A stretch of 64,000 nucleotides of DNA from a virus. Taxonomy: Duplodnaviria > Heunggongvirae > Uroviricota > Caudoviricetes. Positions 2,644 to 55,660 of the stretch are shown in pieces (positions within the stretch are counted from its first letter, which is position 1; every line of letters begins with the position of its first letter). The position numbers were made by a program, and so were the translations under genes. Where the stretch lies: IMG/VR virus record IMGVR_UViG_3300042445_002023; one strand, given 5' to 3'. The notes under the pieces were generated by a model. It was given only the letters and a program-made list of their open reading frames with translations. It was not told where the DNA came from and made no database searches.

Positions 2644-2712
2644 TTTTTTTATCGTTTGGTGAAAATCTATATATTTATATATATAACTAATTAATAAACA
2701 AAATATATCAAA

Positions 2713-2982
2713 ATGGCAGAAAAAATTAAGTTTACGGAAGACGAAGTCGCACAAATTAACAAATTACGAATTGATGTTGGGGCTGTTTTTACTGAATTAG
2801 GACAAATTCATATTGAAAAAAGAAGAAGATTGTCAGAATTAGAAGAAAGAGAAGCAGAATTAACTAAACAACATTCGGATTTAGTTATAACGGAAGAAAC
2901 CTTATTTAAAGGATTAAATGAAAAATACGGAGATGGTGATTACAACCCTACAACGGGAGAATTCACACCAATCGCAGAATAA
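2713..2982 (+). CDS. hypothetical coiled-coil protein (89 aa)
   Basis: Preceded by the late-type motif at 2667-2690; charged heptad-like sequence. Confidence 0.45.
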   Translation: MAEKIKFTEDEVAQINKLRIDVGAVFTELGQIHIEKRRRLSELEEREAELTKQHSDLVITEETLFKGLNEKYGDGDYNPTTGEFTPIAE

Positions 2983-3074
2983 TACTACGTTACGCATATA
3001 TAAAATAATATTTTAGAAAAAGTATCTAATACTTATATGTGTATCATTACACAAACTTAATAGGAGTAAATAAA

Positions 3075-5474
3075 ATGGCAGAAAAAATTGTATCACCTGG
3101 TGTATTCACAAGAGAGAATGATTTATCATTTTTATCACAGGGTATCGGAGAAATTGGAGCAGCAATAGTAGGACCTTTTAGTAAAGGACCAGCATTCTTA
3201 CCAACTATCGTAAATACACAATCAGAATTTGAAGAAATATTCGGTACACCTGATGGAACATACTATACAGGGTACGCAGTACAAAACTATCTAAGAGAAG
3301 CAGGAACAGTTACAATTGTTCGTGTTGGTCACTTAGGTGGTTATTCACAAGTAGCACCAATTGGTATTAAAGTAACATTAGAATCTGGTTCTGCTACAGG
3401 AACATATGCAAGTGGTAGTGAACATATCATCGGTACATTACACGCTACATTAAGTGGTAGTGAATCAACCGGATTTGCTACTGGTTCAATAGTATTTGCA
3501 AACGGGACATCAACTGATAGTTATTTTACAATTAGTGGAAGTAATATTGCATATAATGGTTCAGCATCAATTGACCCTTCAGAAGGAAATGATATTGGTG
3601 ATGTATTTGGAGAATCTCCATTTGGAACTAAAAAAGCATATGTGTATACATACTTTGAAAAAACAGCTACTGATTTAAGTGCATACTTATCTGCAGGTTC
3701 TGGTTCTATTTCATTAGTTCAATTACCAACTCAAGTATTTGGAGCTGATACTAATGGTATTACATACGCAGAAACACCAATGGTTAAATCTCAATTAATT
3801 AGCGGTCAACGCCACGATTTATTTAAATTTGAAACATTAGGTGATGGTAATCCATACAATACCGAATATAAAATAAGTATTTTTAACGTCAAAGCAGCAG
3901 GAGTATCTGGTGCAACTGATTACGCTACATTCTCAATAGTAGTTCGTGGATTTAGTGATACTGATAGAAAAAAATCAGTAAAAGAAACATATAATAACGT
4001 TAACTTAGACCCTGCATCTCCAAACTATATTGCTAAAGTAATTGGTGATAGAACATTAACAATTGATGCAAATGGTAAACAAACTGAAACTGGTGATTAC
4101 GCAAATCGTTCTAAATTAGTTAGAGTAAAAGTTGCAGCTGAAGGTTCATTCCCTATCATAGCAGCACCTTTTGGACATGGTGCATACATCAATCCAATCG
4201 ATGCAACGATAGAAACAATCGTTCCTGCAGTTATATATTCAACGGGTTCTGTTAATAATACAGCATCATCTGCATATAGATACTCTGGTATTGATTTAGA
4301 AACTACTGCAGTAAAAATAAATAATACACAATATTTAAAACCATTACCGGGAACTGAATTTAGTACTGGTAGAAATACTGATTTTACATTTGATGCAGAT
4401 ATTACTGCTATTGTAAGTGGTTCGGTTGGAACATATAATTTTGGTTATTCATTATCAACTGATGATTCGGCCGAAACAATTGCTAAAAGACAATTTACTT
4501 TAGCGTTTCAAGGTGGATTTGATGGTACAACGCCAGCAAAAACAATTAACAAAGGTGTGGATATATCAGCAGGTAATTCACAAGGATTTAACTTAGCAAC
4601 ATCAATTGCAAGTGGTTCGGTTGCATATGTAAAAGCAATCAACGCAGTATCTAACCCTGATGATTTTGATATCAACTTAATCGCAGCACCAGGTATAGTT
4701 CGTAGACATCACTCATATGTATTTGATTACATAAGTGAAATGTGTGAGAATCGTGAAGATGTATTCTTCATTGGTGATGTAGTTGGTTGTGATGGTGGTA
4801 ATGATACAATTGATGAAGCAGTTGCACAAGGTGCAGCAGTAGATTCTAACTATGTAGGTACTTATTACCCGTGGGTTAAGACAATCGATAGAAACACTAA
4901 CAAATTAACTGCAGTACCACCATCAGTATTGATGCCAGGTATTTACGCAGCAAATGATGCGGTTGCAGCAGAATGGTTCGCACCAGCTGGTTTAAATCGT
5001 GGTGGAATCGTAGGAGCAGTTTCAGTATTGAATAGATTAACACACGCAGAGAGAGATACATTATACGAAGGAAAAATAAATCCTATCGCATCTTTCCCTG
5101 GCGAGGGTATCGTGGCATTTGGACAGAAAACATTACAAGAAAAATCATCAGCGTTAGATAGAATCAATGTTAGAAGATTACTTATCAAAGTTAAGAAGTA
5201 TATCGCTTCTACATCAAGATACTTAGTATTCGAACAAAATACTTCTACCACTCGTTCAAGATTCTTAAATACAGTTAATCCTTATTTAGAAGCAATTCAA
5301 CAAAGACAAGGTTTATATGCATTTAGAGTAGTAATGGATGAGAGTAATAACACTCCTGATGTAATTGATAGAAATATATTGGCTGGACAGATTTTCTTAC
5401 AACCAACAAAAACCGCTGAATTCATCGTGTTAGATTTCAACATCTTACCGACTGGAGCATCGTTCTCAGCATAA
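3075..5474 (+). CDS. tail sheath protein
   Basis: C-terminal sheath signature: INPIASFPGEGIVAFGQKTLQ ... SALDRINVRRLLIKVKKYI. AGGAG ribosome-binding site at 3063. Start taken at 3075 rather than the track's 3039. Confidence 0.75.
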   Translation: MAEKIVSPGVFTRENDLSFLSQGIGEIGAAIVGPFSKGPAFLPTIVNTQSEFEEIFGTPDGTYYTGYAVQNYLREAGTVTIVRVGHLGGYSQVAPIGIKVTLESGSATGTYASGSEHIIGTLHATLSGSESTGFATGSIVFANGTSTDSYFTISGSNIAYNGSASIDPSEGNDIGDVFGESPFGTKKAYVYTYFEKTATDLSAYLSAGSGSISLVQLPTQVFGADTNGITYAETPMVKSQLISGQRHDLFKFETLGDGNPYNTEYKISIFNVKAAGVSGATDYATFSIVVRGFSDTDRKKSVKETYNNVNLDPASPNYIAKVIGDRTLTIDANGKQTETGDYANRSKLVRVKVAAEGSFPIIAAPFGHGAYINPIDATIETIVPAVIYSTGSVNNTASSAYRYSGIDLETTAVKINNTQYLKPLPGTEFSTGRNTDFTFDADITAIVSGSVGTYNFGYSLSTDDSAETIAKRQFTLAFQGGFDGTTPAKTINKGVDISAGNSQGFNLATSIASGSVAYVKAINAVSNPDDFDINLIAAPGIVRRHHSYVFDYISEMCENREDVFFIGDVVGCDGGNDTIDEAVAQGAAVDSNYVGTYYPWVKTIDRNTNKLTAVPPSVLMPGIYAANDAVAAEWFAPAGLNRGGIVGAVSVLNRLTHAERDTLYEGKINPIASFPGEGIVAFGQKTLQEKSSALDRINVRRLLIKVKKYIASTSRYLVFEQNTSTTRSRFLNTVNPYLEAIQQRQGLYAFRVVMDESNNTPDVIDRNILAGQIFLQPTKTAEFIVLDFNILPTGASFSA

Positions 5475-5528
5475 ATTTTAAAAAAAAGAGAAACCTTATA
5501 TTTATTAATATAATAGGAGAAAATAAAA

Positions 5529-6017
5529 ATGGCAGAAATATTAGAGTTTAACGAAATGTTCTATACCAACTTTGAACCAAAGATGAAAAATCGTTTCATC
5601 ATGGAAATCGCTGGTATCCCTTCATATCTTATCAAAGCAGGTAACAGACCAAACATTCAGTTTGAAGCTGTAACATTAGAACACATCAACTTAAAAAGAA
5701 AGTTGAAAGGTAAAGGTGAATGGCAAGATTTAGAAATCACATTATATGACCCAATCGTACCATCAGGTGCACAGGCAGTAATGGAGTGGGTTAGAACTTC
5801 ACATGAATCCCTAACAGGACGTGATGGATATGCAGATTTCTACAAAAAAGATATTGATATCTATATGTTAGGACCAGTAGGTGATAAAATTGAAAACTGG
5901 AAACTTAAAGGTGCATTTATCTTAAACGCACAATTTGGTGAATTAGATTGGACATCAAATGACCCTGCAGAGATTACATTAACGTTAGCTTACGATTATG
6001 CAATACTTGAATTCTAA
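5529..6017 (+). CDS. tail tube protein (putative)
   Basis: 162 aa ORF directly after the sheath gene with an AGGAG site; size and position are typical of a tube protein; strong terminator follows. Confidence 0.55.
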   Translation: MAEILEFNEMFYTNFEPKMKNRFIMEIAGIPSYLIKAGNRPNIQFEAVTLEHINLKRKLKGKGEWQDLEITLYDPIVPSGAQAVMEWVRTSHESLTGRDGYADFYKKDIDIYMLGPVGDKIENWKLKGAFILNAQFGELDWTSNDPAEITLTLAYDYAILEF

Positions 6018-6042
6018 TAGAATTAAAATATAAAATTAAGAA

Positions 6043-6069
6043 AGGAGATAGAAATATCTCCTTTTTTTT
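6043..6069 (+). terminator. rho-independent terminator: AGGAGATA-gaaa-TATCTCCT followed by T8
   Basis: Perfect 8-bp stem, 4-nt loop and a T-run, seen directly in the sequence. Confidence 0.75.
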
Positions 6070-6082
6070 CAATTTTTTTTTT

Positions 6083-6110
6083 ATTTATATATTTATATAC
6101 AATAACAAAA
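6083..6110 (+). promoter_or_regulatory. late-type promoter-like motif: TATATATTTATATACAATAACAAAA
   Basis: Conserved copies at 2667-2690, 15859-15885 and 55628-55660; each lies 20-30 nt upstream of an ATG. Confidence 0.5.
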
Positions 6111-6122
6111 TAAAGGTAAAAT

Positions 6123-6878
6123 ATGTCACAATACGAATTCTCAACGGAAATAGTTGGATTACCATCTCAAGGTAAATGCTATCCAGAAACAAATCCATTA
6201 TCAAGTGGTAACATCGAATTAAAATATATGACGGCAAGAGAGGAAGAAATTCTTTCATCTCAAAGTTTGATTAAAAAAGGTGTAGTATTAGATAAATTAT
6301 TCGAAGCAATTATAGTAGATAAGAAAGTAAATCCAGATGATATTCTTTTGGGTGATAAAAACGCTATTATGTTAGCAACTCGTATCTTAGGATATGGACC
6401 AGAATATAAGATTGAAATATTAGATGATAATGATACCAAACAACAAATTACTGTTGATTTAGGTAAAGTTCAAACAAAAGATATTGATTATTCAAAGTTA
6501 AATACTGAAAATCGTTATCAATTTACAACATCAACTGGAAATGTATTAGTTTTTAAACTATTAACACATGGTGATGAAAAACGAATTGATGCTGATGTTA
6601 ACGCTTTAAAAAGATTGAACAAAGATTCAATGGGGAGTGAATTAACCACCCGTTATCGTTATATGATACAATCGGTAGATGGTAAAGAAGACACCAAATC
6701 TATAACTGATTTTATTAATAATAAATTCCTTGCTAGAGATACTAAAGGATTTAGAGAACATGTAAAAAATTTACAACCGGATATCAAAATGGAATTTGAT
6801 TACGAAAACCCTGAAACAGGAGAAATGGAGGTAAGACCTATTACAATGGGTGTTAGCTTTTTTTGGCCTACCGAGTAA
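6123..6878 (+). CDS. hypothetical protein, possible tail assembly chaperone (first ORF of a candidate frameshift pair)
   Basis: Sits between the tube and tape-measure genes; ends at a T7 run; the next ORF overlaps it in the +1 frame. Confidence 0.5.
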   Translation: MSQYEFSTEIVGLPSQGKCYPETNPLSSGNIELKYMTAREEEILSSQSLIKKGVVLDKLFEAIIVDKKVNPDDILLGDKNAIMLATRILGYGPEYKIEILDDNDTKQQITVDLGKVQTKDIDYSKLNTENRYQFTTSTGNVLVFKLLTHGDEKRIDADVNALKRLNKDSMGSELTTRYRYMIQSVDGKEDTKSITDFINNKFLARDTKGFREHVKNLQPDIKMEFDYENPETGEMEVRPITMGVSFFWPTE

Positions 6879-7089
6879 TTATTCTATCCTATTACATAGA
6901 CAAATTTTTGAATTATGTTATCATGGAAATGGGTTCATTCAATCGGATGTATATAGATTACCAGTTCATTTAAGAAATTTTTATTACAAAGAATTGGTAG
7001 ATACAAAGAAACGAGAAAGTGATAATGCAAATAAAGCACAAAAAAATAACCAACCATCAAAAGGACCAGGTGTAAGAGTGAGGAAATAA
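6850..7089 (+). CDS. candidate +1 frameshift extension of the 6123 ORF; basic C-terminus
   Basis: Overlaps the upstream stop; the only start is a GTG with no ribosome-binding site; a terminator hairpin lies exactly at its stop; without it there would be a 265-nt gap in an otherwise compact genome. Confidence 0.3.
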   Translation: MLAFFGLPSNYSILLHRQIFELCYHGNGFIQSDVYRLPVHLRNFYYKELVDTKKRESDNANKAQKNNQPSKGPGVRVRK

Positions 7090-7105
7090 ATTCCTCACTT
7101 TTTTT
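7078..7105 (+). terminator. rho-independent terminator: GTGAGGAA-ataaa-TTCCTCAC followed by T7
   Basis: Perfect 8-bp stem and T-run, seen in the sequence. Confidence 0.7.
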
Positions 7106-7142
7106 ATGTCTTATATTTATAGGAGTATAATAGGAGAACCTT

Positions 7143-7409
7143 ATGAAATTAACAAAAGAAGATAGACAACTTTTTAAAGAAATTTATACTAAACATAAAT
7201 TGAAAGAAGGATTTATTAGTAATTTATTTTTATCTATATTAAGTCGTAATTTAAAAAGTGATAAAAATATAGCTAAAGCAATAAAAGATGCAGACGAATC
7301 AATCGAAACTGCTCGTGAAACTATTGAAAAACGATTCGGTGGCGATAAAGAAGCAGTTAAAAAGGCAATACCTCAATCAGTTAGAAAATATTTAGGATTT
7401 GATTACTAA
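7143..7409 (+). CDS. hypothetical protein (88 aa)
   Basis: AGGAG site at 7130; lies between the chaperone-like gene and the tape measure. Confidence 0.5.
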   Translation: MKLTKEDRQLFKEIYTKHKLKEGFISNLFLSILSRNLKSDKNIAKAIKDADESIETARETIEKRFGGDKEAVKKAIPQSVRKYLGFDY

Positions 7410-12922: not shown

Positions 12923-15430
12923 ATGCCAGGTTCATTTCCAAATTTATCAAATATATATCCTGAATTAGAAACTACTCTAAAAAATAGAGCAGGTAACAAT
13001 AACCCGTGGAATGTAAAAGCAAATCCCGGTGTTAGTGGTCTATCTACTTGGATTAGATTATTAGCTGGGGTGGCACCAAATGGGTGTATATTAGAATCAA
13101 TAAATCCAAACGCTACTGATTTCACATCGGTATATGGTTCAAATGGTGGTTCTTACATCGGCCCTGGTGCTATCGGTAGAAATTTTAGTGGTGATGAAAT
13201 ATGGATACCATCTGGTAGAAGTAGAGCACTTAGACCACCACCTATTATAACATCTATGACTATGGATGAAAAAGCTGAAGGTGGTAGTCGATTAGCAACT
13301 ATTAAAATTCGTGCATTTACAAAAGAACAATCTGATTTATTAGCCGGATATTTTTTAGAACCGGGATTTCATGCCTTATGTGAGTGGGGTTGGAATACTC
13401 AAAAATCAAATGCACAAAAAGTTGGAGGCGGTGGAAAGGTAACAAATTGTGATTTAGTTGCATACGACCAATGGTCTACAATTAAAGAAAAAAGAATTAA
13501 ATCTGATTTTACTTATGATGCATTTTTAGGTATTGTAACTGGCGGTGGAATTTCATTTGGAGATAATGAAAGTTATGAATTGGAAGTAAAATTAACATCA
13601 GTTGGTAATGTAGCTGAATATATGCAAACGCATAGAGATGCTAATAACACAAATGAAAATAAAAAAGATAGTGGAAAGACTTTTTCACCACAACAAATTG
13701 AAACACAGGTAGGTGATAAAAAAATAGGTGCCGCACTTTTTATGCAAATGTTTAATCAACTTCCTGGACAAAAAAGGACACCTAAAGTTTATAATTTATG
13801 GAACAATCCACAATGGTCAGATACTGCTAATTTTGTAAACATAGATAAAGTAGTTGGGGAAACTTTAAAAGATGCATTATCAGAGGCAGGTGAATTAAAA
13901 TCATCTTCTGGCGCAGAAGTGGCTATACCCAAAGATTTACCGCTATTATCAGAAGAAAAATTTATTAGATTTGAATTGGCATGTGAAATAATGAATAGTT
14001 ATGTATATGATTTAAAAAGTAAACCAAGTTCATGTGGTAGTTATAAAACTCGTAGTAAACTAATTAATATTAAAAATACTTATATTAGTGGATTTCCACA
14101 TATGTTTTCGACTGACCCTACAAAATTATTTATACCAAATCCAACTACTCCAAATTTTAAATTTTTAGATGCACTATCCGCGGATAAAGAAATAAAAACT
14201 TATTTTGAGTTTGATGCGTTAGATGATTCCAAAAATTTTTCAAATATACACCCTTTAGCAGAACTAACATCATACCCCTGGCTACAACACGTAGATTCAA
14301 GAATAGACCCATCAGATGGTAAGAGTAGGTTAGTTCCATATGCATTTCCAAATACAAGGGGAATAAGTGCAAAATCTCAAGCAGATTCTACATTTATAGC
14401 AGTACAAGAAAAAGCTAGATTTTGGGGATACTTAAAAGATTTATATATAAATTTTAATTTTTTCGTAGAATGTATAAGTAAACCAAATTTTGTAGTTAGA
14501 GATGTTTTTTATGAAATGTTAAATGGTATGTCATCTGCATGTAATTCAATTTGGAAATTTCAAATACAAGAAGTACCTGAACCAACTCCAGATGGTAAAT
14601 ATGAATTAGCAGTAGTTGATTTAAATTTTTTAGGTGATATCTCAAATAATAGTGGTATTGTAACATTTCAATCTAGAGGAGTTAAATCGCCATTTATTAG
14701 TTGTGATTTTTCAGTAGAAGTTCCTGCCGCAATGATGTCATCGGTTGTGAATAATAAATTAAAAGATGATAAGGGTCATACATATGACCATAGTCCTGAA
14801 TTAAATCCCCGTCCGGCTTTAGGAACTGTATTTTCTAGAAGACAAGATTTTGTTGGTACTATCCTAGCAGGAATACAACAAGCAGAAAAGGAAGAAGAAG
14901 AAGGACCACCTGATACATCAAATAACCCACCAAAACGAAAAAGTGCAGATGAATTAGAATTAGAGGCTAAGGTAGCAAATTTTGAATTTTTTGTAAAAAC
15001 AGGTGCAGTATATCCTAAAATTCAAGATAGAGAGGCAAAACTAGATATAACTAAAACCTTTTTTGATAGTGCAGCTAACGATAACACAATTGAAAATGTA
15101 TTAATGGTAGGTTCATGGAATGACACATCAGCCCTAAGACAATGTTTTTTAGTTGATAAGGGTTTAGCCGTTAGTCAAACTTTACAAACGAAAGCTGCTA
15201 ATAATACACAAAATCCACCATTTGGTGTTGCTGATTTTGATTTCAAAGTACATGGTGTAAGTGGATTTAAAGTGGGCGACCAATTTCAAGTAGATGGATT
15301 ACCTGATAAATTCGGTCAACCAAATGTATTTCAAGTAGTGAAAGTAGACCACACATTAGATGGTATGACATGGACAACGGATGTTAAATCTAAATTAAGA
15401 ATAGTAGGTAAAGAAAGTAAACCTAAATAA
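12923..15430 (+). CDS. baseplate or tail structural protein (835 aa)
   Basis: Large ORF in the tail module; no specific motif. Confidence 0.45.
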   Translation: MPGSFPNLSNIYPELETTLKNRAGNNNPWNVKANPGVSGLSTWIRLLAGVAPNGCILESINPNATDFTSVYGSNGGSYIGPGAIGRNFSGDEIWIPSGRSRALRPPPIITSMTMDEKAEGGSRLATIKIRAFTKEQSDLLAGYFLEPGFHALCEWGWNTQKSNAQKVGGGGKVTNCDLVAYDQWSTIKEKRIKSDFTYDAFLGIVTGGGISFGDNESYELEVKLTSVGNVAEYMQTHRDANNTNENKKDSGKTFSPQQIETQVGDKKIGAALFMQMFNQLPGQKRTPKVYNLWNNPQWSDTANFVNIDKVVGETLKDALSEAGELKSSSGAEVAIPKDLPLLSEEKFIRFELACEIMNSYVYDLKSKPSSCGSYKTRSKLINIKNTYISGFPHMFSTDPTKLFIPNPTTPNFKFLDALSADKEIKTYFEFDALDDSKNFSNIHPLAELTSYPWLQHVDSRIDPSDGKSRLVPYAFPNTRGISAKSQADSTFIAVQEKARFWGYLKDLYINFNFFVECISKPNFVVRDVFYEMLNGMSSACNSIWKFQIQEVPEPTPDGKYELAVVDLNFLGDISNNSGIVTFQSRGVKSPFISCDFSVEVPAAMMSSVVNNKLKDDKGHTYDHSPELNPRPALGTVFSRRQDFVGTILAGIQQAEKEEEEGPPDTSNNPPKRKSADELELEAKVANFEFFVKTGAVYPKIQDREAKLDITKTFFDSAANDNTIENVLMVGSWNDTSALRQCFLVDKGLAVSQTLQTKAANNTQNPPFGVADFDFKVHGVSGFKVGDQFQVDGLPDKFGQPNVFQVVKVDHTLDGMTWTTDVKSKLRIVGKESKPK

Positions 15431-15822: not shown

Positions 15823-15858
15823 TAACAATCATAAAAAAATAATTATCGTTTTTACAAA

Positions 15859-15885
15859 TTATATATATTTATATAAAACACAAAA
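15859..15885 (+). promoter_or_regulatory. late-type promoter-like motif: TTATATATATTTATATAAAACACAAAA
   Basis: Same family; precedes the PhyH-like dioxygenase gene. Confidence 0.45.
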
Positions 15886-15888
15886 GTT

Positions 15889-16665
15889 ATGCAAAAATAC
15901 AAACACCTTACAACGGAAGAACTTCAACAAATGTCATTTGATTGGAGATACCGAGGCTTCACAGTTTTGGAATTATTAACCGAAGCAGAAGTAGATGAAA
16001 TCAACGAAGAATTAGACCGTTTACGTGTAGAACGTAATGAAAAAGAACCAGGAAAATGGCAAGAGTTCGAACCCATTATGTATCCACATAGAGAATCAGA
16101 AAAAATAGCTAAATTATTTTCACATCCAAAAATTTTAGAAGCAGCAGAATTCCTAATGGAAGGTGGAGTTGTTGGATTACAAACTTGGGGTTATTACAAA
16201 CCAAAGGGCGAATTGGGTAGAGACCAACATCAAAATGCATTCTATACTGGTTGTGGACACAATGAAATTATCAACACTGCATTGGCATTAGATAATCACG
16301 ACCCTGAAAATGGTGCAGTATGGAACTATGAAGGTTCACATAGATTACCGGTTTTACCAATCGAAGATAACGAAGAAAGAAAAGCAACAAATACCGATAA
16401 CTGGAGAAGTGAGAGAGGTAAAAGTTGTGTAATGCCAGAAGGGCATGATTTCCGTAAGATAGAAGGGTATTTGAAAAAAGGACAAGTTGCACTTTTACAC
16501 TCACATGTAGTACATGGGTCAGAACCAAATAAAGACCCTAATAGAATGAGAAGAAATTTCTTAGGTGGTTATCTTAAAGAAGGTGCATATTTTCATGCTG
16601 GAAATCAAATGAAAAGAGAGGCAATTGATATGTACGAATTAAGACAAAAGTATTGGGGTGAATAA
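15889..16665 (+). CDS. 2-oxoglutarate/Fe(II)-dependent dioxygenase, PhyH-like
   Basis: HxD motif (DNHDPENGAVWNYEGSH) and a distal His (HSHVVHGSEPN) are consistent with the phytanoyl-CoA dioxygenase fold; late-type motif lies upstream. Confidence 0.5.
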   Translation: MQKYKHLTTEELQQMSFDWRYRGFTVLELLTEAEVDEINEELDRLRVERNEKEPGKWQEFEPIMYPHRESEKIAKLFSHPKILEAAEFLMEGGVVGLQTWGYYKPKGELGRDQHQNAFYTGCGHNEIINTALALDNHDPENGAVWNYEGSHRLPVLPIEDNEERKATNTDNWRSERGKSCVMPEGHDFRKIEGYLKKGQVALLHSHVVHGSEPNKDPNRMRRNFLGGYLKEGAYFHAGNQMKREAIDMYELRQKYWGE

Positions 16666-17389: not shown

Positions 17390-17412
17390 CCAATTGATTA
17401 CCAACATATTAT

Positions 17413-17442
17413 AACTCATTGAAAATCAATGAGTTATTTTTT
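17413..17442 (+). terminator. rho-independent terminator: AACTCATTG-aaaat-CAATGAGTT followed by ATTTTTTG
   Basis: 9-bp perfect stem plus T-run, seen in the sequence; closes the structural module. Confidence 0.7.
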
Positions 17443-18161: not shown

Positions 18162-18225
18162 ATTTGGAAATCTCAGCTATTCTTCGTATATTAGCTTTGT
18201 AATAAATGATTAAACTATAAACAAT

Positions 18226-22596: not shown

Positions 22597-22627
22597 TATT
22601 TATATACTAAACGAGAAAAGTTAGTAT

Positions 22628-23922: not shown

Positions 23923-24039
23923 CATAAAAACAACTTACGGGATATAATTCGGAATATGGATATTTATATAAATAAGCAAAGATAAATTAGGAAAACCGAA
24001 ATATTTTTTGTATATTTGTAATGGGTAAAAAAAATAAAA

Positions 24040-26767: not shown

Positions 26768-26770
26768 ATT

Positions 26771-26800
26771 TGGTAATACGAAATATTATTCGTATCTTTG
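26771..26800 (+). promoter_or_regulatory. early/middle promoter-like motif: TGGTAATACGAAATATTATTCGTATCTTTG
   Basis: TATCTTTG matches the Bacteroidetes sigA -7 consensus TAnnTTTG. An upstream TACGAA-N6-TTCGTA palindrome is present. The motif family recurs at 21316-21329, 27324-27342, 29011-29043, 38528-38556, 47746-47780, 53393-53440 and 54703-54733. Confidence 0.55.
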
Positions 26801-26827
26801 AATTAATAAAAATAAATAAAGGTTATA

Positions 26828-27298: not shown

Positions 27299-27369
27299 AC
27301 GATAGAATATTTGGATATATCAGATAATAATCGTATCTTAGCTTAATAATAAAACATAAAACTTAAAAT

Positions 27370-28992: not shown

Positions 28993-29119
28993 AAATTCTT
29001 TGATTAATTATATACGAAAATCGGAAATTCGTATATTTATATACACACACCGCGAGTAGGAAAGACTCGTAAATAAAACCATAAAACAACTTAATTTTAA
29101 ACACTTAAACGGAGAAAAA

Positions 29120-38524: not shown

Positions 38525-38527
38525 TTT

Positions 38528-38556
38528 GGAAATACGGAATATTTTTCGTATCTTTG
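38528..38556 (+). promoter_or_regulatory. early/middle promoter-like motif: GGAAATACGGAATATTTTTCGTATCTTTG
   Basis: Same motif family; 35 nt upstream of methyltransferase paralog 1. Confidence 0.5.
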
Positions 38557-38590
38557 ATAAAATATAAACTGAATAAAATAATAAAAGGTT

Positions 38591-39823: not shown

Positions 39824-39827
39824 TTTA

Positions 39828-41048
39828 ATGATAAAAGAATATTTCAAAAAGTTTTATGGAATGACCCCCTATATCAATATTGATAAGGAGGAGTGGAAAC
39901 ATATACTAAATACATTTGAAAAGGAAGAGATAGTAGAAACATTATCAGAAGTATTACATACTTATCCACCACCTATTCCTATTATTACAGAACAAGAAAC
40001 GATTGATGCATATAAAAAGTTAAAGGGTACTTGGTGGCCGGATATTTTAGTGGAGGGAGAATGGTTTCCGCGTAATGAAAGGGAATCTGCATATCCACTT
40101 ACATTTGATAGTAGTAATTATTACTTTAAAAGAACGAATGTTGGTAATAACGCATCCAACCCATTCCATATAGAAAATCGATGGAAGGTAGATTGGTCAA
40201 GAACACCATCAGGTTGGAAGACATGGCAGACAGTTAATGGTATAAAAACCATAGTTCGGGCATTCTTCACATTAGAACAAGTCCTAACTGATGTAAATAA
40301 GGAAACACTAAAGATGGCAACTACATTACGAAAGTATGTGGCATCACAATTCAAACCTGTAATTGCTAAAGCATTTTATGATAGATTCCAAAGTGAGAAT
40401 ATATTAGATTTTTCAGCAGGTTGGGGAGATAGATTATGTGGATTCTTTGCAAGTGAAACGGGTAAACATTATGTTGGTATAGACCCTAATTTAGATAATC
40501 ACCCAAATTATGAAAACCAAATAGAATTTTATCAGAAACACAAAACGTTTTTTGAGAATCCTAAAACTGTGGAACTGATAAAGTTACCGGCAGAAGATGT
40601 GGATTATTCCAAATATGAAAACTTTTTTGATACAATCTTCACTTCACCTCCATACTTCAATACTGAAAAGTATTCCACACATGATACTCAAAGTTATTTA
40701 CGCTATAAAAAGATAGATGATTGGAATACCAATTTCCTACATAAAACAATTAAAAAAATAATCCCTACCTTAAAGAAGGGTGGGTTATTAGCAGTTAATA
40801 TTGCAGATGTATTTTCAGCACCAGATAAGGGGTATGTTGATATTGTAAATGCTATGAATGACTTTATTAAATCAGAGGGATTAGAATATATGGGTTGTAT
40901 TGGAATGGAAATGACAAAAAGGTTTAATTCCGGCGGTGCAGGAAATGCTAAATCTGAATATTTTGCAGAAGAACTCAAAGAAAAAACAGAACTCAATAAA
41001 AATAATGCATTTGGTGAACCCATTTGGATTTGGAAAAAAATAAAATAA
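39828..41048 (+). CDS. SPPY-motif methyltransferase-like protein, paralog 2
   Basis: DFSAGWGDRLCGFFAS...HYVGIDP and FTSPPYFN; start placed at the ATG at 39828, directly after the paralog 1 stop, to match the paralog 1 N-terminus (MIKEYFKKFYGMTPY against MYIEYFDKFYGMTPY). Confidence 0.5.
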   Translation: MIKEYFKKFYGMTPYINIDKEEWKHILNTFEKEEIVETLSEVLHTYPPPIPIITEQETIDAYKKLKGTWWPDILVEGEWFPRNERESAYPLTFDSSNYYFKRTNVGNNASNPFHIENRWKVDWSRTPSGWKTWQTVNGIKTIVRAFFTLEQVLTDVNKETLKMATTLRKYVASQFKPVIAKAFYDRFQSENILDFSAGWGDRLCGFFASETGKHYVGIDPNLDNHPNYENQIEFYQKHKTFFENPKTVELIKLPAEDVDYSKYENFFDTIFTSPPYFNTEKYSTHDTQSYLRYKKIDDWNTNFLHKTIKKIIPTLKKGGLLAVNIADVFSAPDKGYVDIVNAMNDFIKSEGLEYMGCIGMEMTKRFNSGGAGNAKSEYFAEELKEKTELNKNNAFGEPIWIWKKIK

Positions 41049-44773: not shown

Positions 44774-44840
44774 TTAAAACAAAAATGTAAAATTGGGTGT
44801 TAAATCCAATTTATTTTATATTTATAAACAAATAACAAGG

Positions 44841-47741: not shown

Positions 47742-47815
47742 AATAAATTTGGATAATTCAAAAATTATTCGTATCTTTACACTTACAATAAATTAAAACA
47801 ATAAAAAAAAACAAC

Positions 47816-48529
47816 ATGGAAAAAGGTAAATTAGGTCGTTTCGTACAAAAGTACAATCTTGCAGGTTTAGTAGAATCTGTAAAGTGGGAAACAAAAGACA
47901 ACTCATTAACAACTGCATTCATTTCTGATGACAAATCAGTATTGGGTAAAGTAACAATGACAGATTTTGGTTATAGTGATACAACATTTGGTGTATATGA
48001 TACATCTAAGTTGACTAAAATGTTATCAGTATTAGGAGAATCAATTGATTTTGAAATTTCTGATGTAGATGGTAAAGCGGTATCATTAAAGTTTAAAGAT
48101 GGTTCAACTTCAATCAATTATATGTTGGCTGACCTTTCGGTTATCCCAAATGTACCTGATTTGAAACAATTACCAACTTTCAACATTAAAATTAAGTTAG
48201 ACGAAAACTTTATTACAAAGTTCATCCGTGCTAAATCGGCGTTGACAGATGAGAACAATTTCACATTTGTTGCAAAAGATGGTAAGTGTCAAATTATCTT
48301 AGGTCATTCAAACATTAACACTAATAGAATTTCTATTGATGTTGATTGTGAGTGTGAAGGTAGTATTAACCCAATCTCATTCTCAGCAACTTACTTAAAG
48401 GAAATCTTAGTTGCAAACAAAGAAGCTAAAGATGCTATCTTAGAAATTTCATCACAAGGATTATCTCACATTCATTTTGAAGTAGATGCCTATACATCCG
48501 ATTACTATTTAGTGGAAATCGCTAACTAA
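47816..48529 (+). CDS. sliding clamp (gp45-like, putative)
   Basis: 237 aa ORF between the polymerase and clamp-loader genes, preceded by the early motif; no strong motif, assigned from size and context. Confidence 0.35.
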   Translation: MEKGKLGRFVQKYNLAGLVESVKWETKDNSLTTAFISDDKSVLGKVTMTDFGYSDTTFGVYDTSKLTKMLSVLGESIDFEISDVDGKAVSLKFKDGSTSINYMLADLSVIPNVPDLKQLPTFNIKIKLDENFITKFIRAKSALTDENNFTFVAKDGKCQIILGHSNINTNRISIDVDCECEGSINPISFSATYLKEILVANKEAKDAILEISSQGLSHIHFEVDAYTSDYYLVEIAN

Positions 48530-48532: not shown

Positions 48533-50167
48533 ATGAGTAAACACTATTACGAAAGGTCTAAATTTTCTGAATTCCAATCCAATACAACTTATCATCGGTT
48601 ATTAGAAATGACTGATGATGAGTTTATTAGTTGGGCAAAGTTACTACGCATAGAAGTAACTAAACAATGGGATACCGATGGTGTTCCTCCTGTTATCGGA
48701 AAAGATAAGAATGATATAATCGATTCATTCAAAAAGTTAAAAACAAATGATTGTGATTTCCTTCAAAAAGATTTGACGGGAGATGATAACTCATTGGGTA
48801 TTTTACAAAACTTCAATAAAGATGCATCAGCCGTAAATCAATTCTTTCCAACTATGTTGAAAACCAAAATATCAATCGGTAAATCAGCAGAAGGTGGATT
48901 ATCTATTTATGACCATTTCTCAGACCCGAAATTAGAAGATACCTTCGTTCATATAATGAAGAGGGCGGTTAAGAAAGATTCTATGTATTCGTGGTCACGT
49001 TCTATTGTGAATAAGAAAGATGAGAATGAATTTTGGGATGGTGAAACTGGAATTGAATTTATACAAAAAGTACATGAAGGTAAAGTGTTCGTTGGTAAGT
49101 ACGAAAACATAGGTATTGTTCTTGCGAAAGTAAAGGAGGATACCTTAGATAATTATGGTACTATCAATGAACAATATATTGGATTTGGTAATCTATACCT
49201 AACTGCTGAACAAGTACAAGAATGTAAGGATAAGGGATGGTTATCACATACTCAATTATCTAATATTAAAACGATTGAACCATCTACCACTTTAAAAGAT
49301 GGGACGGTTAAAAAGTTTTTCTATCTGATTCGTTGGTATGATAAGACAATTGGTATCTTTCCAAAGATATTACAAGTGTTTCGTTTAAGTTGTGGTCAAC
49401 CTGCAGTGAATTTCCCTGCACTAACTGCTAAGTGGTTATACGAACATTACACTTCACATATTGAACAATCAGACCCCCTACACATTTATGATTCATCAAG
49501 TGGATGGGGTGGCAGAATATTAGGTGCAATGAGTTCTCGTAAGAAAACCCATTACATTGGAACTGACCCGAACCCTGATAACTTTATACCGGAATTAGGT
49601 ATTTCACGTTATGAGTATGTGGCTGATTTCTATAACAAAAATTGTGTAGATGATTACTCAGAAACATTTGGTAAGTTCTTTGAGGTTCAAAAACAATCAA
49701 ACACTTATGAGTTATTTCAAGATGGCTCGGAGTTGATTCAACATAATCCTAAGTTTCAAAAGTATGCAGGTAAATTGGATTTAGCATTCACATCACCCCC
49801 ATATTTTAATAGAGAACAATATTCACAAGATGAGAATCAATCATTCAAAGCATATGGTGAATATGAGGATTGGAGACAAAACTTCTTACGTCCTACTCTA
49901 ACTACCATTTATGATTATCTTAAAAATGATAGATACATTCTATGGAACATAGCCGATATTAAAATTGGTAAGGATACCTATTATGCATTGGAACAAGATT
50001 CTATTGATATTCTAACCGGATTAGGTTGTGAGTATAAAGGTAGATTGAAGATGTTAATGACCCGAATGGTAGGATTAGACCCATCTAAAACCGGTATTAA
50101 AAACGCAGTTAAACACGATGGTAAAGCGTATAAGTTTGAACCCATTTTTGTATTTTACAAACCATAA
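48533..50167 (+). CDS. SPPY-motif methyltransferase-like protein, paralog 3, with an extra N-terminal extension of about 300 aa
   Basis: SSSGWGGRILGAM...HYIGTDP and AFTSPPYFN; C-terminal block YILWNIADI aligns with LAVNIADV in paralogs 1 and 2. Confidence 0.5.
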   Translation: MSKHYYERSKFSEFQSNTTYHRLLEMTDDEFISWAKLLRIEVTKQWDTDGVPPVIGKDKNDIIDSFKKLKTNDCDFLQKDLTGDDNSLGILQNFNKDASAVNQFFPTMLKTKISIGKSAEGGLSIYDHFSDPKLEDTFVHIMKRAVKKDSMYSWSRSIVNKKDENEFWDGETGIEFIQKVHEGKVFVGKYENIGIVLAKVKEDTLDNYGTINEQYIGFGNLYLTAEQVQECKDKGWLSHTQLSNIKTIEPSTTLKDGTVKKFFYLIRWYDKTIGIFPKILQVFRLSCGQPAVNFPALTAKWLYEHYTSHIEQSDPLHIYDSSSGWGGRILGAMSSRKKTHYIGTDPNPDNFIPELGISRYEYVADFYNKNCVDDYSETFGKFFEVQKQSNTYELFQDGSELIQHNPKFQKYAGKLDLAFTSPPYFNREQYSQDENQSFKAYGEYEDWRQNFLRPTLTTIYDYLKNDRYILWNIADIKIGKDTYYALEQDSIDILTGLGCEYKGRLKMLMTRMVGLDPSKTGIKNAVKHDGKAYKFEPIFVFYKP

Positions 50168-51522: not shown

Positions 51523-51543
51523 AACAAATAATATTTATACATA

Positions 51544-52131
51544 ATGACATCGAAAGAATACGTTATATGGCTTAAAGGTTTTGTAGAAGCCTGCCACGAA
51601 TACGCACCAACTCCAAAACAATGGGATGCGTTAAAAGATAAATTGGTAGAGGTTAAGGATGAAGAACCAATAGGATTTCCGTTTGGAGTTCCTAATACTG
51701 CACCAATACAAACATTACCATTTATCCAACCATATAACCCATATAACCCATATCAAATAAATTGTGGTAGTGGTTCATCTGGAACAATAACAACAACACC
51801 TGGTCAAAGTTCTATTACATACGCAACACCACAATTTGTAACATCAACTCCATCAGCAACTGCATATGGGTATCCAAGTGGGAGTACAATGAGTTATACT
51901 AATTCAACATGGAAACCGGAACACGGCCCAAATTCTCCAACTATACAAAATATAAACAAATCATTAGGCGAATCATTAGAGGAATTAGAAAATGATTTCT
52001 TTGGTGCAATTGATGATGGTGGTTGGACACCTGAATTGGAGCAACAATTTTGGTCTGAACAACCTCCTGAACCATTTGCAACACCTGAGGAATTAGCAAA
52101 ATATAATACGGATACAACACAAAATAAATAA
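51544..52131 (+). CDS. hypothetical protein (195 aa) with an acidic C-terminus; possible clamp-loader small subunit
   Basis: Lies directly upstream of the clamp loader; low-complexity PYNPYNPYQ segment; assignment is speculative. Confidence 0.3.
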   Translation: MTSKEYVIWLKGFVEACHEYAPTPKQWDALKDKLVEVKDEEPIGFPFGVPNTAPIQTLPFIQPYNPYNPYQINCGSGSSGTITTTPGQSSITYATPQFVTSTPSATAYGYPSGSTMSYTNSTWKPEHGPNSPTIQNINKSLGESLEELENDFFGAIDDGGWTPELEQQFWSEQPPEPFATPEELAKYNTDTTQNK

Positions 52132-52132: not shown

Positions 52133-53080
52133 ATGGCATTTTTCGAAGAAAATATAAAAGAAGAAACCCCCAACACACTTTGGGTTGAAAAATATCGTCC
52201 TAAGAAATTAGAGGATTATGTTGGCAATGACCATTTAAAACAAAAGATTCGCGATTATATTGAAAGTGGAGATGTCCCACATTTACTTTTATTTGGTAAA
52301 GCGGGAACAGGTAAAACCACTCTTGCAAAGTTGATTGTTAATTCAATCAATTGTGATTTTATGATACTAAACGCATCTGATGAAAACAATGTGGATACTG
52401 TCCGTAATAAAGTAAAATCATTTGCATCTACAATTGGGTTTAAAGATATAAAAATTGTTATCTTAGATGAGTTTGATTATATGACTCCTCAGGCTCAAGC
52501 AATCCTTAGAAATCTAATGGAAACATTTAGTAAACATTGTCGATTCATTTTGACTTGTAACTATGTGGAGAAAATCATTGACCCGATACAAAGTAGATGC
52601 CAAACCTTTCAGATTATACCACCCACTAAAAAAGATGTGGCAGTACAAATTAGTAAAATATTAACAGAGGAACGAATCCAATTTGAATTAAAAGAATTAG
52701 TTCCAATAGTAGATTCATCATATCCAGATATTCGTAAAATTATTAATACCTGTCAACTTAATTCCTCAAAGGGAATATTAAAAATTGATAGTAGTAGTAT
52801 ATCTGATGCAGATGTTAGAGTAAAAATTATAGATATTCTTAAATCAAAGGATGATAAGAGAAATCGTTATGTAAATCTAAGACAAGCAGTTGCAGATTCT
52901 CGTATACAAGATTTTACTGAATTATACACCCATCTTTACGAAAAGGTAAACGATTATGCAGTGGGTAATACTTCTGCCGTAATTATGATTCTCGCACAAG
53001 GACAATACAAAGATGCTATGATTGTAGATAAGGAGATTTGTTTTATGGCAACTCTTATCGAAATAAACGATGTGATATGA
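52133..53080 (+). CDS. clamp loader AAA+ ATPase subunit (gp44/RFC-like)
   Basis: Walker A (LLFGKAGTGKTTLAKL), Walker B (VILDEFD), SRC-like motif (QSRCQTF). Confidence 0.7.
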   Translation: MAFFEENIKEETPNTLWVEKYRPKKLEDYVGNDHLKQKIRDYIESGDVPHLLLFGKAGTGKTTLAKLIVNSINCDFMILNASDENNVDTVRNKVKSFASTIGFKDIKIVILDEFDYMTPQAQAILRNLMETFSKHCRFILTCNYVEKIIDPIQSRCQTFQIIPPTKKDVAVQISKILTEERIQFELKELVPIVDSSYPDIRKIINTCQLNSSKGILKIDSSSISDADVRVKIIDILKSKDDKRNRYVNLRQAVADSRIQDFTELYTHLYEKVNDYAVGNTSAVIMILAQGQYKDAMIVDKEICFMATLIEINDVI

Positions 53081-53391: not shown

Positions 53392-53441
53392 TTTGGTAAT
53401 ACGGATATATTTTCGTATATTTAAGGATAAATACGGATATA

Positions 53442-53980: not shown

Positions 53981-53986
53981 AATAAT

Positions 53987-54253
53987 ATGGCACAAATTTT
54001 AGGAGCAGGTGGTCAACCAATTGGTGGACAAAATGATGAAGTTGAAATCCCATTAGAAAAAACAACATCAATCGCATGTAACAAATGTGGTGGTGAAGTT
54101 TTTGTACAAGGATTTGGATTTAGAAAAATATCTAAGTTATTAACAGGTAAACCAAAGGATGAAGTTCTACCAGTAGAATTATTTCTATGTGGTGAATGTG
54201 GCGAGGTACTTAATGAAGTACTACCTCCTGGTTTAAAAGTAGAACAAGAATAA
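53987..54253 (+). CDS. zinc-ribbon protein (88 aa)
   Basis: CNKCGG ... CGECG. Confidence 0.45.
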   Translation: MAQILGAGGQPIGGQNDEVEIPLEKTTSIACNKCGGEVFVQGFGFRKISKLLTGKPKDEVLPVELFLCGECGEVLNEVLPPGLKVEQE

Positions 54254-54702
54254 TGGCGAAATCACTATTCGACCATATAAAGGCAATTACAACCGAACAA
54301 GACCCAAAATATTGGGATAAGTTGGATGATGCTGATAAAAAGACTTGGTCTAATTATATGGTACATCGTTTCATCTCAATGAATCCAGATTGGATATCTG
54401 TTATTTCAGAGATACAACCTTATACTGAAATATTAGAACCCAAACAATTATATCTAGCACTAATTGGTATTATCCCAAAAGGGAAATATTACCTTAGATA
54501 TGTAAAAGGTAAGAAAGAAGATACCTACGAAAAATGGTTAGTTGAATTGGTTGCAAAGGATTATCAATGTTCTACAAAACAGGCTGAAGAGTATTTAGAA
54601 ATCTTATATTCAACAAAAGAAGGTAGGGAACATATTAAGTATACCTGTGAGAGATATGCAATCGAACCAAAAGAAATTACAAAATTAAAATTAAAAATAT
54701 AG
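54253..54702 (+). CDS. hypothetical protein (149 aa)
   Basis: ORF only. Confidence 0.4.
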   Translation: MAKSLFDHIKAITTEQDPKYWDKLDDADKKTWSNYMVHRFISMNPDWISVISEIQPYTEILEPKQLYLALIGIIPKGKYYLRYVKGKKEDTYEKWLVELVAKDYQCSTKQAEEYLEILYSTKEGREHIKYTCERYAIEPKEITKLKLKI

Positions 54703-54733
54703 TTGGTAATATCGAATAATTTTCGTATCTTTA
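54703..54733 (+). promoter_or_regulatory. early/middle promoter-like motif: TTGGTAATATCGAATAATTTTCGTATCTTTA
   Basis: Same motif family; upstream of the PD-(D/E)XK nuclease. Confidence 0.45.
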
Positions 54734-54752
54734 TAGTATAAAAAAACAAATA

Positions 54753-55610
54753 ATGGCAAGAGTAAGTTATAGTCAATATGGAATGTGGACAAGTTGTCAA
54801 CAACAATTCAAACTAAGTTATATAGATAAATTAGGTGAATCATCTGCAAACATCCATACAATCTTTGGTTCGGCAATGCACGAAACCATTCAACATTTTC
54901 TTTCCGTTATGTATGGGGTATCCAAAAAACAGGCACTTCTATTAGATGTAGAGGGTATGTTAAAGGAAAAGTTAGTAGAACATTTTACTACTGAAAAGGC
55001 TAAAATGACTGAAGGTACTCCATGTACTCAAATTGAATTAGAGGAATTCTTTGGCGATGGTAGACAAATTCTACATTATTTTAAAACTAAGTTAGATAAA
55101 CTTTATACTAAAAGTGGGTTTGAATTAGTTTCAATTGAGTTACCCCTAAACGCAGAAGTAAGACCGGGGGTTAATTTTGTTGGGTTTATTGATATTGTAT
55201 TGAAGGAAGTATCAAGTGGTAAAATTATTATCATTGATTTAAAAACATCAACACGAGGTTGGAATCAATATCAAAAAGCAGATAAGGTTAAAACATCTCA
55301 GATGCTTCTATATAAGAAGTTTTATTCAGAAAAGTATAATGTTCCATTAGATAAGATTGAGGTTGAATACCAAATCCTAAAAAGAAAGGTATCAGATACG
55401 ACTGAATTCACAATACCACGTATATCTAAGTTTGTTCCAGCCAATGGAAAACCCTCAGTCAATGCAGCTTGGAAAGGATTTATGGAGTTTGTTGACTCCG
55501 TATATAATGAAGAAGGTGTAGTAAAACAAGTTGATTTCCCTACCAATAAATCAAAATCTTGTGATTGGTGTGAATTCAAAACCCGAAAAATTTGTCCTAT
55601 TTGGTCATAA
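54753..55610 (+). CDS. PD-(D/E)XK nuclease, Cas4/RecB-like, with a C-terminal Cys cluster
   Basis: FVGFIDIVL...IIIDLKTS core and the C-terminal cluster CDWCEFKTRKICP. Confidence 0.55.
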   Translation: MARVSYSQYGMWTSCQQQFKLSYIDKLGESSANIHTIFGSAMHETIQHFLSVMYGVSKKQALLLDVEGMLKEKLVEHFTTEKAKMTEGTPCTQIELEEFFGDGRQILHYFKTKLDKLYTKSGFELVSIELPLNAEVRPGVNFVGFIDIVLKEVSSGKIIIIDLKTSTRGWNQYQKADKVKTSQMLLYKKFYSEKYNVPLDKIEVEYQILKRKVSDTTEFTIPRISKFVPANGKPSVNAAWKGFMEFVDSVYNEEGVVKQVDFPTNKSKSCDWCEFKTRKICPIWS

Positions 55611-55627
55611 ATTTTATCTTTTTTATA

Positions 55628-55660
55628 TTTGTATATATTTATATACATAACAAAAAAAAG
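55628..55660 (+). promoter_or_regulatory. late-type promoter-like motif: TTTGTATATATTTATATACATAACAAAAAAAAG
   Basis: Same family as 6083; precedes the glycosyltransferase cluster. Confidence 0.5.

Follow-up and report, generated by a model that had tools for sequence, protein, structure and literature searches.

We analysed a window of 64,000 nucleotides from a tailed virus of the Caudoviricetes (IMG/VR record IMGVR_UViG_3300042445_002023), in which an 8-letter DNA motif, TATTTATA, recurs ahead of virion genes and in its strongest copies extends to the exact 14-mer TATATATTTATATA. The motif lies ~14-40 nt ahead of start codons, is always co-oriented with the genes, and is kept near letter-perfect in hundreds of related phages. 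Two copies directly follow intrinsic terminators, and in the window as in a complete related genome the genes that it precedes belong largely to a different class from those behind promoters of the ordinary host type. From this arrangement of the sequence we propose that the motif is probably the late-class promoter of the lineage, used by host RNA polymerase that a phage factor has redirected. The consensus appears to be undescribed so far, as full-text searches of an open-access collection found nothing relevant on TATTTATA in connection with phage promoters or on late promoters of Flavobacterium phages.

The phage and its relatives

All credible genes of the window lie on the + strand, and the DNA is 32% G+C. 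Comparison with PHROGs and Pfam identified a T4-type sheath (3039/3075-5474), tube, baseplate hub and wedge proteins; a replication set with a gp32-like single-strand-binding protein (SSB), UvsX, a gp41-type helicase, a B-family DNA polymerase and clamp-loader subunits; and a ribonucleotide reductase, a PhyH dioxygenase and a glycosyltransferase/sugar-nucleotide cluster. A nucleotide search with the first 20 kb of the window against phage genomes returned no match, and we therefore sought relatives through proteins. Metagenome contigs of 212 and 229 kb represent the window phage. Among cultured phages, Flavobacterium phage immuto (160 kb) and 'Microcystis' phage Mel-JY01 (190 kb) are closest to it; both are syntenic with the window in the tail module and in two further blocks, SSB-helicase and nuclease-glycosyltransferase. 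For the structural region, 80 viral contigs were found with the sheath protein (sheath 62-92% identical). In the structural region, counts of TATTTATA and its variants in relatives refer to distinct sequences and those of the 14-mer before single genes to loci; the 14-mer was sought within 120 nt upstream of orthologous start codons. The lineage is a clade of large (~160-300 kb) T4-related myophages of Bacteroidota. The host of the window phage is most probably a member of the Bacteroidota, because its early promoters have the form TTTG-N20-TAnnTTT(G/A).

A conserved motif on one strand

The 14-mer occurs four times, always on the coding (+) strand, at 2668-2681, 6086-6099, 15862-15875 and 55632-55645. 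These are the four clear copies listed in an initial annotation of this DNA, whose coordinates were right. At up to two mismatches the window holds 24 matches, against 8.5 +/- 3.9 in dinucleotide shuffles, none of which reached 24. A weight matrix of 45 columns, built from the relatives alone, gave the exact copies 29-42 bits, a hybrid site before the SSB gene 18.2 and a site at 7110 9.6; shuffled sequence mostly stayed below 17 bits, with one shuffle at 23.4. Minus-strand matches above 11 bits were only mirror images of the same near-palindromic sites. Across the 80 sheath loci, the 14-mer (at most one mismatch) was found 123 times on the gene strand versus twice on the opposite one, at the same two syntenic places, namely before the small gene preceding the sheath and after the tube gene. 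The 9-mer ATATTTATA also lies exclusively on the + strand of the window (12:0), and 9 of its 12 occurrences have the start of an open reading frame (ORF) within 50 nt downstream, against a generous background of 25%.

Alignment of the more degenerate sites reduced the conserved unit to the 8-mer TATTTATA, or an 8-9-mer (A)TATTTATA, in extended form aTATTTATAt. The flanks drift, and positions around the motif hold little information. Strong copies share a T-rich or (C)GTTTTT element 8-10 nt upstream, which is absent from the sites before the tube gene and gene 1366-2643 (g1366; other genes are likewise named by their first position) and from many sites in immuto. The initial annotation had made AACAAAA part of the motif. 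This string follows 25 of the 99 distinct 14-mer sites in relatives versus 6 of 55 ordinary gene starts, and we read it as an A-rich leader outside the conserved unit.

Sites in the structural block

The following features, all on the + strand, mark the structural block.

1339-1346, + strand: TATTTATA core, 19 nt before gene 1366-2643 and within the 3' end of gene 356-1354
2668-2681, + strand: exact 14-mer TATATATTTATATA, 31 nt ahead of the pre-sheath gene 2713-2982 (89 aa); 41.6 bits
3030-3037, + strand: variant core TACTTATA; the probable sheath start, ATG 3075 with an AGGAG, lies 37 nt downstream
5497-5506, + strand: variant TATATTTATT, 22 nt before the tail tube gene 5529-6017; position 5499 onward reads TATTTATT
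6038-6067, + strand: intrinsic terminator after the tube gene, 13-pair stem and T run; the 6086 copy is next
6086-6099, + strand: exact 14-mer, 23 nt before the baseplate-hub gene 6123-6878; 38.9 bits
7074-7102, + strand: intrinsic terminator after gene 6850-7089, ahead of the 7114 copy
7114-7121, + strand: TATTTATA core, 21 nt before gene 7143-7409; kept in 9 of 10 relatives
17411-17437, + strand: intrinsic terminator closing the structural block

Conservation at these sites was high. Ahead of g1366 orthologues, TATTTATA was present in 29 of 29 relatives, 14-21 nt from the start codon. Upstream of g2713, where a CGTTTGG element ends 8 nt short of the 2668 copy, the 14-mer was found at up to two mismatches in 45 of 46 relatives (30 exact), and TATTTATA in all 37 distinct upstream sequences. 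The sheath site reads TAyTTATA in 50 of 51 relatives, and the Joint Genome Institute annotation places the sheath start at the equivalent of window position 3075. Most of 51 relatives have TATATTTAT (TATTTATw) at a fixed distance before the tube gene, with TATAAT-AGGAG after it. For g6123 the 14-mer was present at up to two mismatches in 69 of 69 relatives (50 exact) and TATTTATA in 48 of 50; the hub orthologues of immuto and Mel-JY01 carry TATATTTATATA and ATATTTATGT, respectively, at the same place. The initial annotation had called g6123 chaperone-like; we find it to be a homologue of the baseplate hub (Pfam T4_baseplate, weak match). That annotation had also put weaker copies at 5486-5510 and 7111-7136, which the relatives bear out, and it had missed the conserved sites at 1339-1346 and 3030-3037.

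The distribution within the block is selective. Before neighbouring structural-region genes the 14-mer was matched only with at least 3-4 mismatches, save at the sheath and tube genes, where the match is degenerate and at a fixed offset. The core TATTTATA was found in 0-1 cases before orthologues of g356, g6850, g7412, g9973, g12628, g12923 and g15433. Presence before six genes and absence before seven neighbours is the pattern expected of operon heads. The terminator-then-motif layout seen at 6038-6099 and 7074-7121 was found in immuto and Mel-JY01 as well. Gene 7143-7409 is the first of a tape-measure-like and baseplate block that runs to ~15.8 kb; the next copy of the motif is at 15862, and no terminator comes before that at 17411-17437. 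No early-type box was detected in the window's structural block, and the first early-type promoter comes after the terminator at 17411-17437. Directly upstream of the window, on the same contig, TATATTTATA stands before a 1295-aa tail-fibre-like gene.

The motif in two complete genomes

In immuto, (A/C)TATTTATA occurs 28 times on the gene strand versus 3 times on the other, and 24 of the 28 sites have an ORF start within 50 nt downstream. These sites precede the terminase, portal and post-capsid genes, the genes for sheath, tube, hub, tape measure and tail fibres, and also the lysis cassette and sugar cluster; 19 of the 28 fall within virion-gene blocks, which make up 44% of the genome, and the remainder stand before the lysis cassette and the sugar cluster. 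The early promoters of immuto (GTTGC-N19-TAtaTTTAG; n=48) all use TAtaTTTAG, and 6 of the 48 lie in virion-gene blocks. Twelve of the 28 motif sites read CTATTTATA, which is incompatible with TAnnTTT.

Mel-JY01 carries the form ATATTTAT(A/G)T 18 times on the + strand versus 3 times on the other, one of the minus-strand copies being correctly placed upstream of a minus-strand gene. In this genome the motif stands ahead of the portal, tube and hub genes, of the gene next after that for the major capsid protein and of the one preceding the sheath. Early promoters of Mel-JY01 (PP395634.1) have the form CTTGCA-N17-19-TAnnTTTG, with 13 on the + strand versus 2 on the other (e.g., 63039, 69085, 83371 and 143093). 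We note that these are of Bacteroidota type, which is at odds with the recorded cyanobacterial host, Microcystis. We had considered this host record as showing the motif to act in hosts of more than one phylum, and with it that its reader is phage-encoded, and rejected the argument, because the early promoters are Bacteroidota-type and the record itself is questionable.

Early promoters of the window

The early promoters have the Bacteroidota form TTTG-N20-TAnnTTT(G/A), with TTTG at -33 and TAnnTTTR at -7, and their spacer frequently holds an inverted repeat. Examples lie at 18162-18225, 26768-26827, 27299-27369, 38525-38590, 47742-47815, 53392-53441 and 54703-54752. These sites share TTTGgaAATACGaAatATTtTTCGTATcTTT(G/A), and an 8-bp inverted repeat, ATACGAAA...TTTCGTAT, fills the spacer between -33 and -7. 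T4-type phages have 'promoter-early stem-loops', which this repeat recalls; alternatively, it may be an operator. The promoters at 47748 and 53392 use TAnnTTTA. A scan of the window with the sigma-70 consensus was uninformative (90 matches versus 97 expected).

The initial annotation held that the motif lacks the TAnnTTTG box, and this is true in part. The TA of the conserved core is displaced relative to that box, and letters that are free in the host -7 box are invariant in the motif, together with the 3' ATA. On the other side, TTTA or TATTTA occurs in the motif and in the early -7 box alike, the 14-mer itself holds TAtaTTTA, and a perfect TTTG-N20-TATATTTG abuts one copy at 55600-55631. 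No -33 TTTG or TTG stands in register, 19-21 nt upstream, at 2668, 6086 or 15862; the TTTG upstream of 55632 belongs to the separate, complete promoter that ends at 55631.

Sites before the SSB gene, the dioxygenase gene and the sugar cluster

Copies of the motif outside the structural block, with the elements beside them, are as follows.

29030-29043, + strand: 'hybrid' cgTATATTTATATA, 78 nt before the gp32-like SSB gene 29120-29956; 18.2 bits
29052-29070, + strand: hairpin CGAGU-AGGAAAG-ACUCG at the head of the predicted SSB leader, 8-10 nt past the motif
15862-15875, + strand: exact 14-mer, 13 nt before the PhyH-family dioxygenase gene 15889-16665; 29 bits
55600-55631, + strand: perfect host-type promoter TTTG-N20-TATATTTG, abutting the 55632 copy as a tandem of early and putative late types
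55632-55645, + strand: exact 14-mer, 22 nt before the 64-aa ribbon-helix-helix (RHH)-like gene 55668-55862; 35.2 bits

At the SSB gene the core is fused with an inverted repeat typical of early promoters; the initial annotation had noted a hybrid at 29031-29043 that overlaps an early motif. Although the matrix gives this hybrid only 18 bits, TATTTATA is kept in 49 of 61 relatives, several of which have an early TATATTTG box ~11 nt upstream. The hairpin shows compensatory changes in 5 of 6 pairs in an alignment of 30 relatives and also appears in the single-sequence fold; as it covaries and starts 8-10 nt after the motif, it fits an RNA 5' end just past the box. In the leader (29044-29122) a conserved A-rich AAAACC/TTAAAC stretch follows the hairpin; Rfam matched no family here or elsewhere in the window. 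T4 gene 32 has multiple promoters and a structured leader, which the SSB arrangement recalls. The hairpin may act as a translational operator in the manner of the one in T4 gene 32.

The dioxygenase gene (Pfam PhyH, 5e-15) presents a different picture. At its upstream site (15823-15888) the motif is present in 19 of 59 relatives, and an early-type TTTG-N20-TATATTTA with the spacer inverted repeat takes its place in 40 of 59. The locus thus displays turnover of promoter type, early-type and motif-type elements swapping among relatives. The initial annotation's inference that the dioxygenase is expressed together with the tail genes does not extend to the lineage; such co-expression would be a feature of the window phage's sub-lineage alone.

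Its corresponding claim for the sugar genes fared well. Ahead of this cluster TATTTATA is kept in 57 of 58 relatives (glycosyltransferase 72-99% identical) and the 14-mer in 31 of 58, mostly preceded by GTTTTTT, and immuto has a box at the syntenic position 48955, before gp182/gp181. Early-type matches were found there in 17 of 58 relatives. This conservation points to co-regulation of the cluster with the tail genes. The RHH-like protein at its head has a weak Arc-like PHROG match (E 2e-4). The cluster occupies 55668-64000 and continues for ~5 kb past the end of the window, behind a single late-type promoter, and comprises several glycosyltransferases, an epimerase, methyltransferases, WbqC, an aminotransferase-like protein, a hexapeptide acetyltransferase and an embedded dUTPase. 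The cluster may glycosylate virion proteins.

Further copies of the core have a narrower comparative basis.

22597-22604, + strand: TATTTATA, 23 nt before the nuclease gene 22628-23293; the single close relative has TATTTATG
23961-23968, + strand: TATTTATA, 71 nt before gene 24040-26283; an early-type TATATTTG box lies downstream of it
44819-44826, + strand: TATTTATA, 14 nt before the in-frame ATG 44841 of a small gene ahead of the DNA polymerase gene; seen in the window sequence alone
51532-51539, + strand: TATTTATA, 4 nt before the ATG of gene 51544-52131; seen in the window sequence alone

At 22597 and 23961 the comparison is limited to 1-2 near-identical relatives, and the 23961 site is kept in both of its 2. 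In immuto, TATTTATA at gp002 (1337-1348) lies just 1 nt before the ATG. If this box and that at 51532 are promoters, their mRNAs would be leaderless or nearly so.

Clamp genes and candidate factors

Clamp-loader genes lie at 52133-53080 (phrog_168, 6e-82) and 54253-54702 (phrog_225, 3e-17). Directly after the polymerase gene, the gene at 47816-48529 encodes a protein of 237 aa whose predicted structure matches PCNA structures (Foldseek, E ~1e-9). The model has modest confidence (predicted local distance difference test 60, and 75-87 in the C-terminal half), and with corresponding caution we take the product to be a putative sliding clamp of the PCNA/gp45 fold. It has no Pfam match, its PHROG is a family with no assigned function, and it has 2237 homologues in the protein collection, a number that reflects how abundant the clade is. 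PDB sequence searches with the products of 47816, 26357 and 51544 gave no match, so that 47816 was identified by the fold search alone.

Two small zinc-ribbon families are also conserved across these phages. One is common to all three, as window 53987-54253, immuto gp193 (L087:43121-43339) and Mel-JY01 77524-77769; in Mel-JY01 its gene is flanked by the clamp-loader genes, and in the window it closely precedes the gene for the small clamp-loader subunit. The second comprises immuto gp086 (L089:10436-11011) and Mel-JY01 13184-13822. PHROGs and Pfam were uninformative on the small proteins conserved in immuto and Mel-JY01, zinc-ribbon ones included. We list the zinc-ribbon proteins as unranked candidates for polymerase-associated factors.

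As a separate observation, the window encodes three paralogous large proteins (38591-41048 and 48533-50167) with a C-terminal DNA-methylase-like domain (phrog_12517/498; Pfam N6_N4_Mtase slightly under the cut-off). Together with a methyltransferase at 33767-34873, they suggest heavy DNA modification.

Discussion

We reasoned that a motif with these properties would most simply act as a promoter. The recognised element would be a -10-like 8-bp box, TATTTATA, which in the strongest copies is embedded in TATATATTTATATA and accompanied by a T-rich or GTTTTT element 8-10 bp upstream. Transcription would begin a few bases past the box and yield short A-rich leaders of ~10-35 nt. The driven units would be the pre-sheath gene with sheath and tube, the hub, the tape-measure/baseplate block and the glycosyltransferase cluster, with the motif serving as a second promoter of the gp32-like SSB gene, and the early host-type promoters would serve replication and small-gene modules. 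Host RNA polymerase would read the box by means of a specificity factor from the phage, which would replace the usual sigma contacts, so that the canonical -33 element would not be needed. The relation between motif and host -7 box would then parallel that between the late box of T4, consensus TATAAATA, and the E. coli -10 hexamer. The initial annotation had already proposed a late promoter of structural and glycosylation genes. Orientation, position, terminators, conservation and gene-class split all fit with that proposal, but its restriction to these gene classes does not hold, as the SSB gene is also preceded by the motif.

Several points weigh against this reading. We infer promoter activity, late timing, the start site and a phage-encoded factor from sequence. 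The count of 9-mers by itself is not significant (12 versus 7.6 +/- 2.9, with 11% of shuffles reaching 12), and the evidence therefore rests on strand, position and conservation. The TAtaTTTA within the 14-mer is one letter off the host -7 box; taken with the TAnnTTTA boxes of early promoters and the swapping at the PhyH locus, it means that host sigma-A could be the reader. The presence of the motif before the SSB gene, and perhaps other replication genes, means that 'late' may stand for 'middle plus late' or 'continuous'. Finally, the initial annotation had favoured a phage-specific sigma, and we detected no gp55-like protein in the window or the two complete related genomes. PHROGs gave no gp55 match among ~70 window ORFs, although T4 gp55 itself matches phrog_234 at 3e-69. 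A gp55 profile from 120 homologues found none in six-frame ORFs of the window, of all loci, of immuto and of Mel-JY01 (best E 0.09); for the window phage itself the search covered the 64-kb window, ~150 kb of its genome lying outside. A tblastn search with T4 gp55 was negative, and Pfam revealed no gp55 among the window ORFs lacking an assigned function. In general PHROGs scans no window ORF matched a family named as a sigma factor or late-transcription co-activator, no gp33-directed query having been made. A comparison of protein C-termini for clamp-binding peptides shared with that of the polymerase gave no clear pattern.

The same observations can be read in terms of the host alone. On this account, which we judge unlikely, the host primary sigma, with no phage sigma involved, reads the motif as an 'extended -7' promoter, and the long perfect box (TA-TA-TATTTA-TATA) offsets the missing -33 TTTG; it would be active late by surviving a phage block on -33 recognition (compare extended -10 promoters and T4 AsiA) or would be strong and constitutive. 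The host-like boxes just described, to which the TAtaTTTAG of every immuto early promoter can be added, speak in its favour, as do the interchange of promoter types at the PhyH site, the tandem types at 55600-55645 and, in relatives, before the SSB gene, the T-rich tract at roughly the -33 position, and the searches that found no phage sigma. However, the conserved core is TATTTATA, with its TA displaced by 2 nt from that of TAnnTTT, and a TA in the host register is missing from 12 of the 28 immuto sites (CTATTTATA) and from the window's sheath, g1366 and g7143 sites. The letters left free in the host box are invariant here, as is the 3' ATA, and a clean split by gene class is unexpected of a mere strength variant.

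Three other explanations do without promoter function in the motif itself. It is improbable, in our view, that the motif is an operator for a phage DNA-binding regulator such as the RHH-like 64-aa protein, with the true promoters in adjacent AT-rich sequence. The 14-mer is near-palindromic, with TATATA arms, and the RHH-like gene is conserved beside one copy, also in immuto; but the strict strand asymmetry (123:2, 28:3 and 18:3) is unexpected of a palindromic operator, the conserved 8-mer is not palindromic, the distances to start codons and the upstream terminators suit a promoter, and a second promoter-like element is not conserved at most sites. Somewhat more improbable still is an element acting in RNA, in the 5' leader or translation initiation of highly expressed late mRNAs. 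Bacteroidota largely do without Shine-Dalgarno pairing and prefer A/U-rich leaders, and the motif is always near start codons (4-40 nt) with A-rich leaders. Its spacing to the start codon nevertheless ranges over 13-78 nt in the window and varies by 8-20 nt within single orthologue groups; several sites (sheath, tube, g7143 and sugar cluster) have an AGGAG of their own between the box and the start codon; the SSB copy is 78 nt upstream of its gene, before a structured leader; and some copies come right after terminators, where a new transcript must begin. Chance clustering of AT-rich low-complexity intergenic sequence could be entertained in a genome of 32% G+C, given the unremarkable 9-mer count, but we regard it as having almost no likelihood. 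No shuffle reached the 14-mer count, all copies lie on one strand, and conservation at orthologous positions across hundreds of diverged contigs and two cultured phages refutes it.

If a redirecting factor does read the motif, it would be a novel late protein, sigma-like or sigma-appropriating, that acts on Bacteroidota RNA polymerase, with its recognition sequence, TATTTATA, already defined; the motif would then be the DNA target with which to find it. To our knowledge, very little is known of the phage-directed regulation of Bacteroidota RNA polymerase. Besides the window phage, the abundant, aquatic clade takes in Mel-JY01, the Immutovirus phages and thousands of relatives known from metagenomes. 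In these poorly annotated genomes of 160-300 kb, the motif can serve as a marker of operon heads and putative late genes. It also predicts co-expression of the sugar/glycosyltransferase cluster with the virion genes; such timing would suit glycosylation of virion proteins.

Comparison with known systems

T4 is the obvious point of reference. Its late promoters consist of a TATA box of 8 bp that lies one helical turn ahead of the start and has AT-rich sequence downstream; they lack a -35 element (PMC2988020). They are recognised by gp55, while gp33 and the sliding clamp serve as activators (PMC2988020, PMC7892883). The present motif is likewise an 8-bp AT-only box before virion genes, a variant of the host -10-type element with AT-rich sequence downstream, and like the T4 box it would serve as an extra promoter of the gene for the single-strand-binding protein. 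The phages also share the sheath, tube, gp32-like SSB, UvsX, gp41, B-family polymerase, clamp loader and PCNA/gp45-fold clamp, the last being predicted in the window. The two boxes have 6 of 8 letters in common (TATttATA here versus TATaaATA in T4) and are not identical; TATAAATA itself occurs 5 times on the gene strand of the window, with an ORF start within 50 nt downstream in 0 of 5. Unlike T4 late promoters, the strong copies comprise 14 invariant letters and an upstream T-rich or GTTTTT element that some other sites lack, the host polymerase is of the Bacteroidota type, no gp55 homologue was detected in the window, immuto or Mel-JY01, and immuto has the motif yet no homologues of the window's clamp and two clamp-loader genes. 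Because the defining gp55 was not found in these sequences and immuto carries the motif with no homologues of clamp or clamp loader, the system is not a member of the T4-type late transcription system. We raise only tentatively the possibility of a late programme in the style of T4, with a single TATA box, run by a factor of no detectable similarity to gp55 and clampless in immuto.

Among the T4 relatives KVP40, 44RR, S-PM2 and Aeh1, late consensus sequences with small departures from TATAAATA have been predicted in silico (PMC2988020). Our motif resembles these as a lineage-wide in-silico consensus before late genes; it differs in that all four phages keep gp55, whereas the window clade has another box and no recognisable gp55. 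The primary-sigma promoters of Bacteroidota offer the other comparison. They too have an AT-rich box with TTT followed by A or G, a form that the 14-mer holds as TAtaTTTA, and they occur in tandem with the motif and replace it at one locus. In contrast to their -7 box, TAnnTTTG, the motif has its TA directly on the TTT (TA-TTT-ATA) and an invariant 3' ATA, and the class of genes served by the host-type promoters differs from that of the motif.

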